Shown here: in pieces, positions 40,289 to 45,919 of the stretch | How the letters are laid out: the number at the start of each line of letters is the position of its first letter | Position numbering within the stretch: the first letter of the stretch is position 1 | Assembly (NCBI GenBank): GCA_963713975.1 | Contig: OY970218.1 | Location: forward strand, 3,328,001 to 3,392,000 | From: an uncultured Chloroflexia bacterium | Lineage (GTDB): Bacteria > Chloroflexota > Limnocylindria > Limnocylindrales > CSP1-4 | Direction of reading: 5' to 3' | DNA length: 64,000 nt | The notes under the pieces: model-generated | Seen by the model: only the letters and a program-made list of their open reading frames with translations | Databases searched by the model: none | What the model was told of the DNA's origin: nothing | Translations under genes and position numbers: made by a program

Positions 40289-41065
40289 TCAGCCGGGACC
40301 CGCGCCAGCCTCGTCGCGGTTGCGTGCCAGGTCGGCGGCGTCACCCTGGCCGTGTGCCGGGCGGCTCCCCTCGGGCCAGTCGTTGAACAGCTCGGTGAGC
40401 CAGCGCCCGAAGCGGCCGGGCTCCTCGCGATCCGGGAAGTCGGCCACCATCGCCAGCAGCGCGTCACTTGTCCGCTTCGTGAGGACGTCGACGGCGCCCC
40501 GCGTCGGGCGTCCCTCGGCCGGCAGCGGCTCACCCACGCGCACCCGGATGCGACGCCCGAAGCCGAGCCAGCTGGTGCCGTTGACGGCGATCGGGATGAT
40601 CGGGACGCCGGCGCGCAGGGCGAAGTACGCGGTCCCGTCCATGAGCGGCATCAGCTCCCGCTCGCCGCGGTGGATCCTCCCCTCCCCCGCGATCACGATG
40701 ACCCATCCGTCGTCCAGCACGCGCTGGACCCGCCGCGTCGTGTCGATCAGGTCCGTCTTCGCGGGCCTGTACGGGATCCCGAACCCGGCCCAGGAGATGA
40801 GCCGGTTGCGGGCACCCGACGTCATGTCGGCCTCCTTCGGTCCGAACATCGCGAGCATCGGGGCGGCCGGGAGGACGGCCAGCAGGATCAGGGGGTCGGT
40901 CCAGTTGAGGTGGTTGAAGCAGTAGATCGCCGGACCCTGTGCACAGTGATCACGCCCCTCGACGCGGAGGCGGAACAGGGCTCGCACGATAACGACGCAG
41001 AACCACCTGACCAGGCGGACTCGGGCGGGCCGGTGGACGGGGCCGACCAGGCTGGGCGTCGTCAC
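40289..41065 (-). CDS. Lysophospholipid acyltransferase (PlsC-like)
   Basis: NHLNWTD (HX4D), AGEGR, VPIIPIAV. Confidence 0.88.
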   Translation of the reverse strand: MTTPSLVGPVHRPARVRLVRWFCVVIVRALFRLRVEGRDHCAQGPAIYCFNHLNWTDPLILLAVLPAAPMLAMFGPKEADMTSGARNRLISWAGFGIPYRPAKTDLIDTTRRVQRVLDDGWVIVIAGEGRIHRGERELMPLMDGTAYFALRAGVPIIPIAVNGTSWLGFGRRIRVRVGEPLPAEGRPTRGAVDVLTKRTSDALLAMVADFPDREEPGRFGRWLTELFNDWPEGSRPAHGQGDAADLARNRDEAGAGPG

Positions 41066-41162
41066 CCGCCGAGTATGCGCCGCGATGAGCGGGACCGAAG
41101 CGGCGAACCGGCGCCCAACGGAGAGGCGAGGAGCCTTCGTACGCCGGCGCGAAGCGCCGCGG

Positions 41163-41873
41163 TCAGTCAGGCAGCGCGTCCGGATCCAGGTCGGCGAGGC
41201 TCGGGACGACTGCGTCGGCAAGCTCGCGCGCATTCCCGGCCGGCGGGACGCTGGGATTCGGCACCAGGACGACCGTCATTCCGGCGGCCTTGCCTGCCCG
41301 GACCCCGTTCACCGAATCCTCCACGACCAGGCAGCGACGCGGATCCACGCCCAGCCGCGACGCCGCGAGGAGGTACACATCGGGTGCCGGCTTGCCACGG
41401 GCCACCTCGTCCGAGGAGACGATGGCACCCATGGTGTCGTGGAGGCCGAGCGCATCGACGGCGGCGGCGATCACGTCCCGGTGCGACGACGAGGCGATCG
41501 CCACCGGCCAGCCCAGCGCGATCCGTCGGACCTGCGCCGGGGCGTCGTCGATCACGGGGGCTGGCCGCGCGGCATAGCAGCCGACCACGCCCGCCACGAT
41601 CGCGTGCTGGATCTCGTCCTCGGCCAGCTCGTCGAGGCCCAGGCGCTGCCGCATGGTCCGCGCCCATTCGCGCGAGTTGCCGCCCATCACGGAGGCCTGG
41701 TCGTCGTCCGTCCACGGTCGCCGGTGCTCCCTGGCGAAGGTGATGCGCACCTCGTTCCACCACGGCTCGCTGTCGACCAGCACGCCGTCCATGTCGAACA
41801 GCACGGCATCGAAGCGACGATGGCCCATGTGACCTCCGGGGAACCGGCCAGCTTCCGTGACCGGGTGGGACAC
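41163..41873 (-). CDS. HAD-family phosphatase
   Basis: FDMDGVLVDSE, ASSS, GKPAPD, VEDS..G. Confidence 0.92.
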   Translation of the reverse strand: MSHPVTEAGRFPGGHMGHRRFDAVLFDMDGVLVDSEPWWNEVRITFAREHRRPWTDDDQASVMGGNSREWARTMRQRLGLDELAEDEIQHAIVAGVVGCYAARPAPVIDDAPAQVRRIALGWPVAIASSSHRDVIAAAVDALGLHDTMGAIVSSDEVARGKPAPDVYLLAASRLGVDPRRCLVVEDSVNGVRAGKAAGMTVVLVPNPSVPPAGNARELADAVVPSLADLDPDALPD

Positions 41874-42023
41874 AGGCTAGCGAATCCGGACTGCCCGGGC
41901 CGCACGGGCCGCCTGGTGTGACTTCAGGGCGCCAGACGTGACACGAACGTTGAAGTCTCGCGTCAGTAGGGGTTTACCGAACGCACCACTCGGGACCTCT
42001 GTGCCATCCGACCTGACACTCGG

Positions 42024-43484
42024 ATGGCCGACAACCCCAGTGAGATGCCGAAGCCGAGGATTCAGACAGCCCGACGACCGGAGTGCCCGAAGCACCAGGG
42101 CGACGTGTGGCTCGACGGCTTCTACGGGCGCACCCAGCACCACGAGCGGCCGCGATTTCGTTGTGTGCCCCGGATAGATCCGAGAACGGGCAAGCGGCCG
42201 CCGCTCCACGCGAACGGCGAGAAGCCGCACCCATTCATCGAGCGGCTCGCCCGCCGGCATCGCACGTCGGGCGCGGGCACGCCGCACTTCTGCGAGGAGT
42301 GCGAGCACACGCTCGACCGGCACGAGGGGCCGCAGACGACACGGCGCCAGTCCTTCACCGTTCGGGAAGCCGCGCACGCCGTCGTCCAGGTCGCGCAGGG
42401 GATCAGCATGCGCCGCGCCAGCCGTGATGCGCGCGAGAGCGCCGACCGCCTCACGCCGACCTCGTGGGGGATGCTTCGCGCGAGTCCGCACGGGCAGCTT
42501 GCCTCGGACCAGCTCGCGATGTTCGGGACGATCGTCCGCGACGCCCTGATCCCGCCGACCTGGCCCGACAGTGTCGCGCTCGACGAGACCACCTTCGATG
42601 TGGTGGTAACGGACGTGGCCGACGACGGCGAGAAGACCTCGTTTCGTGGCGCGGTCAGCGTCCTCGGCGTGTATGGGTATCCGAACGGGCGCGGCTCGGG
42701 CCGCGCTGCGGCGCTCTCTCCGCGCGGCGGCGGGGACGCGGTGGAGTGGCTCGCGGTGCTCAAGTCACGGCCGAACGCGCCATCGTGGGTGGTGTGCGAC
42801 CAGGGCAAGGCGGTCGTGTCAGCCATCAAGACGGCGTGGCCGAAGGCGACGGTCTACGTCTGCGAGGCCCACCTGCGGATGCTCGCCGAGAATCGGCTCG
42901 CGGCCGACGGCTTCGACCGCAGGAGCGCGCTCTGGCGGGCGATGCCGGGAGCGATCGGCGACCGGGCGCGGTGGGAGCAGCTCGAGGCCGACATGCACGC
43001 CGCCGGTGCGAGGCAGACGCTCGCCTGGATGAGCTCGAACCGCCGGCTCATGGAACGCCAGTGGCGGGTCCGGGATCCGAACCGGCCGCTCTCGATCGGC
43101 GGGCTCGAGACCGTTCTCCGCGAGGTCGTCCATCGGCTTGGGGACCGCAGGCTCGTGTTCCGCAACCGAGCCCGGCTCGAGCTCGTGTTCGACCTCATGG
43201 GCCTCGAGATGGCCGGGCTTGCGACCGAGCGGAGCGTCCGCGACATCATCCGCCGCGACCTTCTACGCAACAAGGGCCGGCCTCGACTTCCGCGGCGCTC
43301 GCTCGACGATCACGGTTCCTCGTCGCTCTACGACGCCATCCGAGCCGTCAACGTCAGGCGGGGGCCGATACGAGCGGCGGCCCTTGTCAGACAGCACAAG
43401 CGCCGAGCTCGGGAGCGCGCCACTGGGCAGAAGGCACTTCAGCGACCCCCGCGACGACCGCCCATCGGGTCAACGCGCCCGTAG
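42024..43484 (+). CDS. Divergent DDE transposase (Mutator/IS256-like core, N-terminal Zn ribbon)
   Basis: CPKH..G.YG..RFRC, CEEC; VALDET, VVCDQGK..AIK.AWP.A....CEAH (CxxH), GGLE; lies within the TIRs. Confidence 0.8.
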   Translation: MADNPSEMPKPRIQTARRPECPKHQGDVWLDGFYGRTQHHERPRFRCVPRIDPRTGKRPPLHANGEKPHPFIERLARRHRTSGAGTPHFCEECEHTLDRHEGPQTTRRQSFTVREAAHAVVQVAQGISMRRASRDARESADRLTPTSWGMLRASPHGQLASDQLAMFGTIVRDALIPPTWPDSVALDETTFDVVVTDVADDGEKTSFRGAVSVLGVYGYPNGRGSGRAAALSPRGGGDAVEWLAVLKSRPNAPSWVVCDQGKAVVSAIKTAWPKATVYVCEAHLRMLAENRLAADGFDRRSALWRAMPGAIGDRARWEQLEADMHAAGARQTLAWMSSNRRLMERQWRVRDPNRPLSIGGLETVLREVVHRLGDRRLVFRNRARLELVFDLMGLEMAGLATERSVRDIIRRDLLRNKGRPRLPRRSLDDHGSSSLYDAIRAVNVRRGPIRAAALVRQHKRRARERATGQKALQRPPRRPPIGSTRP

Positions 43485-43539
43485 CGCCTTGCTGACCGCG
43501 CACACGAGAGGGACGGTGAAGCTCCGGGCGAGCCTCGCA

Positions 43540-44154
43540 CTACTTCGCGAGTAGGCGCCGACGCCAGGCAAGGCTTCCGGCGAGCAATCCTGCCAGGGCG
43601 ACGATCAGGCCGACGGGAAGCTCCTGCGCTGGTGGCTCCGGGAGCGTCGCCGTGTCGGGCGGCGTCAGCCGGAGCAGCCGGAAGACCTCGGCGACGGTGA
43701 TCCTCTCAACGCCGACGGAGTCCCACGGCGTGCCTCGGATCCAGGCGACCGTGTTGACCTGGATCGCCGGGCTGAAGTCGGTGGCGTCAAACGCGAGCGC
43801 GATCCGATCGCCTTCGCGAGCCTGGATGACGCCTGCGCAGGGCTGCGTCGGCAGATCGTTGATCTCCATCGTTCGCCCGGCGTCGCCGACGGGGGTGTAA
43901 CGGACTCGGAGCGTGAAGCGGCTCGACCATCCATTGTTAGTCGCAGCCCGGGCGAGGCCGCCGTCGCGCACGGCGATCACATCTCCGATGACCACGCGCT
44001 TGGCGGTGGCGAGGGCGTCTCGGAACGATGGGACGGGGCCATCACACTCGGCCGCAACAGGAAGCGGGCTGACCGCGATCGCGCCAAAGGCGACGGCACT
44101 TGCGAGGACGCCGGTGATGAAGCGGCGCCAAGGATCGGAGCGGTTCGTGTCCAA
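43540..44154 (-). CDS. Passenger: secreted protein with signal peptide, Cys pair and C-terminal membrane anchor
   Basis: Signal ..PVAA-EC, CDGPVPSFRDALATAKRVVIGDV, QPC; PDTATLP + TM + RRR tail; own -10 TAGCAT and SD. Confidence 0.75.
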   Translation of the reverse strand: MDTNRSDPWRRFITGVLASAVAFGAIAVSPLPVAAECDGPVPSFRDALATAKRVVIGDVIAVRDGGLARAATNNGWSSRFTLRVRYTPVGDAGRTMEINDLPTQPCAGVIQAREGDRIALAFDATDFSPAIQVNTVAWIRGTPWDSVGVERITVAEVFRLLRLTPPDTATLPEPPAQELPVGLIVALAGLLAGSLAWRRRLLAK

Positions 44155-44394
44155 GTGCGCCCCCTTCGTGTGGCTCGCCAGTGTCGTGGTGGACGCGTCA
44201 GCGGCTCGTCATGCTACGCGGCCGCTCGAAGCTGTCCCCACAGGGGACACCTGGAGGCACGAAGGTCCCGAGTGGTGCGTTCGGTAAACCCCTACTGACG
44301 CGAGACTTCAACGAACGTGTCACAGGACCTTTCCTCCGGCAGCGGGACGCGCGATGATGGCCGTCGGCCGCTGGGGCCGTGGAGGTCTGGTCAC

Positions 44395-45387
44395 GTGCAC
44401 GTCAATCGCGGGCTCATGGGATGGGGCGTCTTCTTCATCGTGCTGGGGGCCGTGCCCCTCGCGGTGCGATCCGGCACGATCGACGAGTCGGTCGTGCGAC
44501 GGGCGTGGGAGCTGTGGCCGCTGATCCTGATCGGGATCGGCCTGGGGCTTGTGCTGGCACGGACCCGGCTGGCCATCGTGGGCACCCTGGTCGTGGCGGT
44601 CACGTTTGGCCTGATGGGCGGCGCCCTGCTGGCCGGAGGTGTGGGGGTGGTGAGCGGGGTCGGGCCATGCGGCCTCGGGGGTGGCAGCGGCTCCGGCCAG
44701 TCGTTCGAGACGCGGACCGGCTCGTTCGCGGGCGACGCGACAGTCCGCCTCGAGATGGACTGCGGCGAGGTGGCCCTGAGCCCGGTCGATGGCGCGGACT
44801 GGACCGTGGCGGGAACGGCGGACGGGGGGCGCGCGCAGGACATGACCGCGACGGATCGCCGGCTCGTGGTGCGCACGCCGGATCACAACGGCGCCATCCT
44901 CGGCACCGCCCCAACCCGCTGGCAGGTGGCGCTGCCACGGGCGACGGCGGTCTCGGTGGAACTGACCCTCAACGCCGGCTCCGCGGACCTCGATCTCGCG
45001 GGCATGACCGTCCCGGCCGCGACCGTGGACGTGAACGCGGGCGACGCCAGGATCGACCTGCATGACGCCGCGGGGACCCAACGCCTCCAGGCATCGGCCA
45101 ACGCCGGCTCGCTGGTGATCCTCCTGCCGGTGCCAGTCGGAACCCTTGCTGGTTCGATCACCGTGAACGCCGGGTCCGCGAAGCTCTGCATTCCGGACGG
45201 CGTCGCGGTCCGGGTACGGAGCGAGGACAAGGCGCTCGGCTCGGTCGACGTCGGCGGCGGCGGCCTGATCCGCAACGGAGACACTTGGTCCACGTCGGGC
45301 TTCGCAGACGCGTCGTCGCGCATCGACGTCACGGTCAACGTGAACCTGGGCAGCATCTCCATCGACCCGGAGGATGGTTGTGACTGA
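44395..45387 (+). CDS. LiaF/DUF5668 TM domain plus DUF4097 (toastrack)-like beta-repeat protein
   Basis: WELWPLILIGIG; repeated (L/V)NAGS/D beta strands; SD GGAGG before GTG 44395. Confidence 0.75.
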   Translation: MHVNRGLMGWGVFFIVLGAVPLAVRSGTIDESVVRRAWELWPLILIGIGLGLVLARTRLAIVGTLVVAVTFGLMGGALLAGGVGVVSGVGPCGLGGGSGSGQSFETRTGSFAGDATVRLEMDCGEVALSPVDGADWTVAGTADGGRAQDMTATDRRLVVRTPDHNGAILGTAPTRWQVALPRATAVSVELTLNAGSADLDLAGMTVPAATVDVNAGDARIDLHDAAGTQRLQASANAGSLVILLPVPVGTLAGSITVNAGSAKLCIPDGVAVRVRSEDKALGSVDVGGGGLIRNGDTWSTSGFADASSRIDVTVNVNLGSISIDPEDGCD

Positions 45388-45919
45388 ACGGCTCTACCGG
45401 AACCCGACGGACCGGGTCATCGCAGGGGTCGCCGGTGGCCTGGCCACCTGGCTCAACATCGACCCGTCGCTGGTCCGGATCGCGTGGGTCCTGCTGGGCA
45501 TCTTCTCGGGCGGGATTTTCGTGCTCGTCTACATCGTGATGATGATCGTGGTGCCGCTGCCACCGCCTGGCTGGGTGCCGCGGCCCCGTGACGCCGCCGG
45601 ACCGGGTCCGTCAAGCGGTGCCGCGTGGCCGCCCGAGCCTGGGACCTGGACATCGACCCCGGGCGATCCCGGGACCTCGGGCTCCCCCACCCCGACCTGG
45701 GGCACACCCCCGCCGGGCGGATCGGCGGAGCCGGCACCGGGCCGCGTCAGCTCCGGCAACGCGGGCATCGTCGGGGGCGTGATCCTCATCGGGCTTGGCG
45801 TCTGGTTCCTCGTAGACCAGTACGTCGATATCAACTGGCAGCTCCTGTGGCCGGTCGCGGTGATCGTGGTCGGCGTGGTGCTCATCGCCGGGGCGCTGAT
45901 GCGCCGACCGTCGGCCTAG
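45374..45919 (+). CDS. pspC: PspC-domain membrane protein
   Basis: RLYR...DRVIAGVAGGLA....IDPSLVR; C-terminal WPV TM pair. Confidence 0.85.
   Translation: MVVTERLYRNPTDRVIAGVAGGLATWLNIDPSLVRIAWVLLGIFSGGIFVLVYIVMMIVVPLPPPGWVPRPRDAAGPGPSSGAAWPPEPGTWTSTPGDPGTSGSPTPTWGTPPPGGSAEPAPGRVSSGNAGIVGGVILIGLGVWFLVDQYVDINWQLLWPVAVIVVGVVLIAGALMRRPSA

Follow-up and report, generated by a model that had tools for sequence, protein, structure and literature searches.

The open reading frame (ORF) at 42024..43484 on the forward strand of the window, by which we mean the whole 64,000-nucleotide stretch of Chloroflexota DNA that was analysed, encodes 486 amino acids (aa) and raises the question of what kind of transposase it specifies and whether that transposase belongs to an intact mobile element. 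A preliminary description, made from the letters of the sequence, had proposed a chimeric-looking protein of a divergent clade, in which an IS1/InsA-like zinc ribbon is fused to a Mutator-like core with an Asp-Asp-Glu (DDE) triad. The ORF and all of the motifs listed there are present (ECPKH...DGFYG...RPRFRC, FCEECEH, GISMRRAS, VALDET, VVCDQG...AIKTAWPKATVYVCEAH, SIGGLE and a basic tail), and their key residues are invariant in relatives, so that they are not chance motifs. Our analysis indicates that window positions 41951-44310 are very probably a complete and intact insertion sequence (IS) of a deep-branching, largely unannotated lineage within the IS256/Mutator superfamily, and that, of the named groups, IS1249 comes closest to it in architecture.

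The extent of the element follows from a comparison of two genomic copies. The source genome, a single contig of 3.62 Mb, contains a second copy of the element, and the two are 99.9% identical across exactly 2360 bp (from TGAAGTCTCGCG to CGCGAGACTTCA), with two single-base indels, and diverge outside this segment. Because the copies are near-identical there and differ beyond, we set the boundaries at 41951-44310 and the length of the terminal inverted repeats at 55 nucleotides (nt). An inverted repeat pair of 68 nt, 94% complementary, is found at 41938-42005 / 44256-44323; 55 nt of each arm belong to the element, and the remainder consists of an 8-bp target duplication, ACGAACGT, present on both flanks, together with the palindromic target GTGAC-ACGAACGT-GTCAC. 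The repeat therefore looked 68 nt long instead of 55, because the insertion sits in an STGAS-N8-STCAS palindrome. The second copy has other flanks and its own perfect 8-bp duplication, GCGCCGGT. It carries an extra T at the equivalent of window position 42063, which leaves a 127-aa out-of-frame product from M8, and one G is missing at the equivalent of 43720, within a passenger gene that we describe below. Since the second copy carries indels in both the transposase and the passenger gene, the window copy is the intact one.

The transposase gene encodes a core that can be placed by both structure prediction and profile alignment. In 17 of 20 database homologues the start methionine aligns with M8, and because most homologues begin there, the likely start is 42045 rather than 42024; residue numbers throughout refer to the 486-aa frame. 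An alignment of 22 sequences, comprising the window protein, the 20 database homologues and a paralogue from the same genome, shows C47, H69, C90, C93, D187, D259, C280, H283 and E362 to be invariant, and C21 and H24 nearly so. AlphaFold modelling of the whole protein from this alignment gave a mean predicted local distance difference test (pLDDT) score of 78.7, with most of residues 110-470 exceeding 80 and a poorly modelled stretch over the first 110, and with helices between D259 and E362. Foldseek placed transposase chains of ISCth4, of the IS256 family, at the top of its results (E 8.6e-9 to 1.6e-5), followed by the P element and Hermes. VIA-align likewise returned ISCth4 at Z 16.0 (root-mean-square deviation 4.8, 268 residues aligned, model 101-399 on chain 101-384), ahead of Hermes (Z about 12) and the cores of retroviral integrases (Z about 11).

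At the sequence level, an hhalign comparison of the family alignment with 13 IS256 transposases from Chloroflexota genomes scored 95.6% (E 1.2e-8, 270 columns), spanning residues 122-415 and pairing the first Asp, the second Asp, the CxxH motif and the Glu. From D259 to C280-x2-H283 there are 21 residues, equal to the distance from D241 to C262/H265 in ISCth4, whose remaining catalytic residues are D175 and E348 and whose helix-turn-helix (HTH) comprises residues 108-165, according to the available part of PMC7780238. Together, the model and the alignments establish, as a predicted structure, a Mutator/IS256-type DDE core with an RNase H fold and an all-helical insertion that carries CxxH. Both the RNase H fold and the D/D/E residues were thus found, in agreement with the Mutator-like core first proposed. 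Three features that characterise the Mutator/IS256 superfamily are present here, namely an RNase H DDE domain with a helical insertion, CxxH about 20 residues after the second Asp, and terminal inverted repeats with 8-bp duplications.

Ahead of this core lies a Cys/His module. C21, H24, G32, C47, H69 and G102 do not vary among 80 diverse relatives, in at least 90% of which R42, F71, C90 and C93 are conserved as well. When the N-terminal 105 aa of the window protein and of three relatives were compared with Pfam at E<=10, nothing was returned except Zn_ribbon_recom at E 0.13. The Pfam ribbons of InsA (PF03811) and IS1595 (PF12760) matched none of the 80 members at E<=1e-3, and the window N-terminus matched neither at E<=10, while a PDB sequence search with the family profile returned ISCth4 alone, at E 0.26. 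The whole-protein model predicts β strands at 27-33, 43-48 and 70-72. A separate model of residues 8-112 was built from the 80-sequence alignment (pLDDT 74.9). Against 48,161 chains, this second model gave eight with Z>=2, the best VIA Z being 2.5, with the TFIIS ribbon (1tfi) at Z 2.1 and the NrdR ribbon at Z 2.0; Foldseek returned nothing at E<=0.001.

Comparison with IS1249 was more informative. The IS1249 transposase of plasmid pTP10 and four IS1249-like proteins begin with CxC...RWRCxxC. In hhalign, short-form relatives of the window protein aligned with these proteins at 97.5% (E 5e-12, 196 columns), a profile comparison that is limited by the five sequences of the IS1249 set, drawn from four plasmid records and one genome locus. 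The alignment covers the ribbon, the HTH, the first and second Asp and CxxH, and the window's own clade aligned with the same five proteins at 91% (E 1.1e-6), over the core only. In the short-form alignment, CP-x-x-H pairs with CP-x-C and R-Q-R-x-x-C with R-W-R-C, and C-x-E-C, past an insert that bears H69, pairs with the second Cys in the knuckle of IS1249. Four of the five IS1249-like proteins have sub-threshold matches to Zn_ribbon_InsA (best E 0.0057) and three have such matches to Zn_ribbon_IS1595. These similarities suggest that the N-terminal module is probably a modified zinc ribbon. For IS1249 itself, only one of 251 Actinomycetes genomes had a match at E<=1e-20.

The description of the protein as an InsA-like ribbon on a Mutator core is fair in this sense: no Pfam InsA or IS1595 ribbon matches it directly, but it aligns with the IS1249 ribbon, which itself approaches the InsA model. 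A recent chimera, in which an IS1-type InsA ribbon was fused to an IS256-type core within this lineage, is a different proposition. Superficial likeness of the motif to CPxC...RYRC ribbons speaks for it, but the Cys/His pattern is invariant in the 80 relatives down to about 30% identity, it recurs in the short, middle and long forms, all of one clade, and the ribbon region lies within the IS1249 alignment. With the Pfam searches also negative, a recent chimera is barely credible. The combination of ribbon and Mutator core that gave the protein its chimeric look is real, but it is an old architecture, found clade-wide and already in the known IS1249 group, and not a recent fusion.

The predicted β strands also bear on another identity for the module, a WRKY/GCM1-type zinc finger, a four-stranded sheet with C..C...H.H ligands, as in eukaryotic Mutator-like elements (MULEs), which would link bacterial and eukaryotic MULEs. 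The strand pattern W.DG.YG ... R.R..C is reminiscent of WRKYGQK...YYRC. According to the available part of Babu et al. (PMC1702500), the WRKY-GCM1 superfamily is specific to eukaryotes, and a bacterial case would be notable if true. However, no WRKY, GCM or BED structure is among the eight chains with Z>=2 or the Foldseek results for this moderately confident model, the order of ligands is C-x2-H...C...H here as against C-x4-5-C...H-x-H there, and the alignment with the IS1249 ribbon accounts better for the motif. We consider a WRKY/GCM1-type finger highly improbable.

The protein is distant from the curated family models. All matches of the window protein lie below threshold. In Pfam, it matches MULE at E 0.0084 and Transposase_mut (PF00872) at E 0.13, with 11.6 bits against a cut-off of 21; in NCBIfam, it scores 21.5 bits against a cut-off of 300 for IS1249 (NF033544) and 12.3 against 150 for IS256 (NF033543). 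For 16 representatives of the clade, NCBIfam scores peak at 36.5 bits with IS256, 26.4 with IS1249 and 14.9 with ISH6, and none passes NF033543. The Pfam Transposase_mut cut-off is passed by four of the 16, and six long forms carry two C-terminal DUF4379 fingers. At E<=1e-3, the 80 members match IS256 (33), IS1249 (33), ISH6 (6), MULE (22), Transposase_mut (18) and DUF4379 (13), with one stray match each to IS66 and ISL3. For comparison, canonical IS256 genes from the same phylum score 150-430 bits and were found in 58 of 201 genomes, a tally that takes in two unpublished genomes.

The clade is nevertheless large. A profile search of 1.84 billion cluster representatives (50% identity) returned 1646 at E<=1e-3, 916 at E<=1e-10 and 380 at E<=1e-30; the 150 representatives listed are about 200 to 918 aa long, full-length forms being about 400-830 aa. 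When the short-form profile was run in a word-indexed search, at least 1142 proteins reached E<=1e-10, most of them with no name or called 'hypothetical protein' and a few called 'Transposase, Mutator family'. The 51 close homologues all lack a name or are called 'hypothetical protein', and a precomputed Pfam domain is absent from every one of them, which, together with the low NCBIfam scores, bears out the earlier expectation of a divergent clade filed as hypothetical.

In maximum-likelihood trees of three groups, computed by a quick search without an outgroup and with support from the Shimodaira-Hasegawa-like approximate likelihood ratio test (SH-aLRT) only, the clade is set off from the rest by a branch with full SH-aLRT support (100%) and a long stem (2.16 changes per column). 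The other groups are IS256 (99%) and IS1249-like (75%), and the trees, being unrooted, are compatible with either as the sister group of the clade. Rooting on IS256 places the DUF4379 long forms at the first branch and leaves the short forms and the window's clade as two supported groups.

These results bear directly on the most conservative explanation, that the element belongs to the IS1249 group or to IS256 proper as a member of the usual kind, catalogued before and with nothing distinctive about it. Its domain order is that of IS1249, both profile alignments with IS1249 are in keeping with such membership, and an 8-bp duplication is usual in the Mutator/IS256 superfamily, according to the available part of PMC3942029. 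Yet neither the window protein nor the best of the 16 relatives comes near the NCBIfam cut-offs, which true IS256 genes of the same phylum reach, the clade stands apart on its long, fully supported stem, and its ribbon ligands differ from those of IS1249 in the CxxH and in the split second knuckle. Judged by these models, trees and ligands, ordinary membership in either group is unlikely, although an ISfinder entry for the clade may exist.

If the transposase belongs to a mobile element, its relatives should likewise lie between repeats. Eight relatives were located in genome records, in metagenome-assembled genomes (MAGs) of Chloroflexota (Ca. Limnocylindria and others) or as partial matches in Actinomycetota MAGs; the taxonomy of the clade rests on these eight named MAG records, one named protein and Atlas summaries. 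Six had enough flanking sequence, and all six are bracketed by inverted repeats of 28-66 nt, in elements of 1994-2395 bp. Whole-genome searches added two further bounded elements (L021 and L023), giving eight bounded relatives in all. Perfect 8-bp direct repeats flank five of the eight (L008, L010, L011, L012 and L013) when ±8 nt are scanned at each end. A third, diverged element lies in the source genome itself, 12 kb from the second copy (G000:C1:2212144-2214908, locus L003/L030); it is 2765 bp long, with perfect 30-nt repeats and a 647-aa transposase that is 31% identical to that of the window. The transposase of this third element ends in zinc-ribbon-like CxxC repeats, and in related long forms there are two Pfam DUF4379 treble-clef fingers.

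Occurrence is patchy, with a match at E<=1e-10 in 7 of 301 genomes sampled from the phylum, which fits mobile DNA. Neither the window protein nor the short-form relative P0083 had a tblastn match in a plasmid collection. The patchy distribution also argues against a domesticated, immobile regulator derived from a transposase, a role compatible with the DNA-binding domains and the long basic tail, though nothing specific points to it. The protein retains its full catalytic triad, terminal repeats and duplications bound the element, and two near-identical copies occupy unrelated sites, so that we give domestication almost no weight.

The flanks of the insertions contain information on target choice. 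Empty sites were reconstructed for seven insertions with perfect duplications, giving 14 half-sites. Nine of the 14 half-sites have TGA at -4 to -2 relative to the duplication, and a tenth has it one base away from there; across the window, TGA has a background frequency of 0.0097 per position and strand. The consensus is STGAS-N8-STCAS, of which the central 8 bp are duplicated. This sample of targets is small, and positions in it were set by the duplication and not by the motif; two insertions are copies from one genome, so that the element is not independent between them but the targets are. A palindromic STGAS-N8-STCAS target preference is thus probable.

Copy-out/paste-in is the known route of IS256-family elements. 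By analogy with IS256 and ISCth4, a transposase dimer would move the element by copy-out/paste-in through a circle, the ribbon and the HTH presumably reading the long terminal repeats of about 55 bp. The flanks show that insertion takes place with an 8-bp stagger and preferentially between STGAS and STCAS half-sites; recognition of the palindromic target is presumed. The cargo of the element is a convergent passenger gene for a predicted secreted, membrane-anchored protein.

In one MAG, the repeat around the L009 element runs 27 nt outward (L009 3900-3926 and 6053-6079). The outward sequence, gccggc.gatgcttatcccgttg, also flanks a second element, on the right side of L010, at a different locus of the same genome, and might represent a repeated sequence that is favoured for insertion.

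The passenger gene sits between the transposase stop (43484) and the right inverted repeat. Its G+C content by codon position is 0.70/0.55/0.81, compared with 0.72/0.55/0.87 for the transposase gene, a pattern typical of coding sequence here. We found 105 homologues of its product at 42-83% identity, all unnamed or 'hypothetical', which share a signal-like N-terminus ending in AAEC, an invariant Cys pair, PPDT, and a C-terminal hydrophobic anchor followed by WRR. In the C-terminal third, an invariant Pro lies within a PPDT(A/S)T motif, followed after about 12 residues by a hydrophobic helix and WRR, an arrangement that looks like a sorting or anchoring signal. The paralogous element has a homologue of the passenger in the same convergent position (L003 3389-4147, minus strand; 30% identity, E 2e-7). 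Other homologues, at L032 and L033, have no transposase nearby, which marks the passenger as a captured host-type gene.

A convergent ORF is a constant feature of the bounded elements. All ten (that of the window, the paralogue, L008-L013, L021 and L023) contain exactly one, of 124-252 aa, with a coding G+C pattern. Nine of the ten products have an N-terminal hydrophobic segment, several membrane segments or a lipobox and are predicted to be envelope proteins, whether lipoproteins, membrane proteins or secreted proteins; that of L011 has none of these features. None of the ten passengers matched a Pfam family, and tblastn of the window's and the paralogue's passengers against the related elements found nothing at E<0.1, so that most passengers appear to have no detectable relationship to one another, the window/paralogue pair excepted. 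Short-form relatives lie on contigs of about 1.33-1.6 kb, which are too small for a passenger, and this suggests that only the longer elements have the slot. A TIMP-like (netrin-module) identity for the window's passenger found no support: the sole lead came from a language-model search, in which the nearest clusters (similarity 0.95) bear the automatic name 'TIMP family protein', PF00965 matched none of 33 family members at E<=1, and there was no PDB sequence match.

A more far-reaching proposal brings these features together, namely that the clade is an undescribed IS family, a third lineage beside IS256 proper and IS1249. It would be marked jointly by a remodelled ribbon, with a CxxH first knuckle and a second knuckle split by an insert with an invariant His, plus a CxxC, by sequence-directed insertion into STGAS-N8-STCAS palindromes and, in the window's clade, by a fixed cargo slot, located downstream of the transposase gene and occupied by a convergent, exchangeable gene whose product is a lipoprotein, membrane or secreted protein. 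We found no description of the clade in the literature, ISfinder entries lying outside the comparison. We put this forward tentatively, as a serious candidate that still falls somewhat short of being probable; if true, the element would spread cell-envelope genes among Chloroflexota.

Several points count against the interpretation of the locus as an intact element of an IS256/Mutator lineage. The window protein falls under the cut-off of every curated family. No duplication was detected at L009, L021 and L023, three of the eight bounded relatives, in the same ±8-nt scan, and the second genomic copy carries frame-breaking indels in both of its genes, possibly a sign that the pair is decaying. 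Confidence in the N-terminal model is only moderate, none of the structures compared resembles it convincingly, and we infer zinc binding and the set of ligands from conservation alone. Finally, the copy-out/paste-in route is assumed from IS256 and ISCth4. With these points weighed, we still regard the element as very probably complete and intact.

The positions of the features are collected in the table below.

Table 1. Features of the insertion sequence and its target site, in window coordinates.
Feature	Position	Strand	Basis
Left half of palindromic target, GTGAC, outside the element	41938..41942	+	Flank comparison
Left 8-bp target-site duplication, ACGAACGT	41943..41950	+	8/8 identical to 44311-44318
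Left inverted repeat (IRL), 55 nt, begins TGAAGTCTCGCG	41951..42005	+	Boundary from two-copy comparison
Transposase gene, 479 aa from M8 (486-aa open frame from 42024)	42045..43484	+	
N-terminal Cys/His module, C21-x2-H24, C47, H69, C90-x2-C93	42084..42302	+	Conservation; IS1249 ribbon alignment
Helix-turn-helix region, aa 113-175	42360..42548	+	Model helices 113-124, 129-139, 158-175; alignment to ISCth4
DDE core with helical insertion	42582..43109	+	Invariant columns; IS256 D/D/C..H/E pairing
Codons of core motif residues	D187 42582-42584; D259 42798-42800; C280/H283 42861-42872; E362 43107-43109	+	
Convergent passenger gene, 204 aa	43540..44154	-	Signal-like N-terminus, invariant Cys pair, PPDT motif, C-terminal membrane anchor
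Right inverted repeat (IRR), 55 nt	44256..44310	-	Repeat pair and two-copy comparison
Right 8-bp target-site duplication, ACGAACGT	44311..44318	+	Identical to left copy
Right half of palindromic target, GTCAC, outside the element	44319..44323	+	

The host genes around the insertion are divergently oriented, with 40289-41233 and 41163-41873 on the minus strand to the left and 44317-45387 and 45374-45919 on the plus strand to the right. Because the IS is bordered by genes pointing away from it on both sides, it probably lies in a promoter region. Judging their motifs by eye, we take the left neighbours to be an acyltransferase-like protein and a HAD-like hydrolase, and the right neighbours to be a membrane protein followed by a PspC-domain-like protein. 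Consensus sigma-70 promoters and intrinsic terminators were sought in 41850-44420, and none was found; the 55-nt gap between the convergent stops of the two element genes folds no better than shuffled sequences (z 0.39). Seven sequencing runs were listed, each with 0.05-0.09 of the sampled words and all at the contig level, and no RNA run is among them.

Insertion sequences are usually annotated through curated family models, which most members of this clade escape. Since they are filed as hypothetical proteins, the mobile DNA of soil and freshwater Chloroflexota and Actinomycetota is under-counted. The clade also connects the canonical CxxC ribbon of IS1249 with a Cys/His variant and, because it links both ribbon types, offers a natural test case for the evolution of end-binding domains in copy-out/paste-in transposases. 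A palindromic target preference and a constant slot with differing envelope-protein genes are both unusual for the superfamily and, if confirmed, would be informative on target choice and gene capture by simple ISs.

Among known systems, the IS1249 group, represented by IS1249 of the Corynebacterium plasmid pTP10 (NC_004939), is closest in layout. Like the window protein, its transposase, annotated as 'IS256-like element IS1249 family transposase', combines a zinc ribbon, an HTH, a DDE core and a CxxH 21 residues after the second Asp, and both contain the block 'D.G.....AIK..WP.......C..H' around that Asp. The IS1249 ribbon is canonical, CxC...RWRCxxC, whereas here the first knuckle is CxxH and, in the alignment, the second corresponds to C47 and then, past the H69 insert, C90-x2-C93. 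Sizes also differ, the IS1249 protein having 392 aa from a gene of 1.18 kb, compared with 479 aa and passenger-bearing elements of 2.0-2.8 kb here, and the two fall into separate clades in trees. With IS256 proper and ISCth4 (PDB 6xg8/6xgw/6xgx) the window protein has in common the RNase H fold, the four-helix insertion, the DDE and CxxH residues and a preceding HTH, but the hhalign alignment with IS256 begins only at residue 122. IS1 InsA and IS1595 ribbons resemble the module described here in having CP-x-(C/H)...G...R-x-R-C at the extreme N-terminus of the transposase, while the catalytic cores of IS1 and IS1595 belong to other families than the core found here.

Prokaryotic Mutator-like elements offer a wider frame. 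The available part of PMC3942029 lists five families of them, none with a zinc module (the word 'zinc' has no occurrence in that part), and gives terminal repeats of 18-39 nt and direct repeats of 8-9 bp; the terminal repeats here are 28-66 nt. The same portion of PMC3942029 describes Mutator-superfamily ISs with extra ORFs inside their terminal repeats, such as some ISKra4 and ISAzba1 elements (transporter IS). Compared with these transporter ISs, the elements described here are distinguished by the regularity of their cargo: all ten bounded elements have a single convergent ORF in the same position, with varied and mostly envelope-related content.

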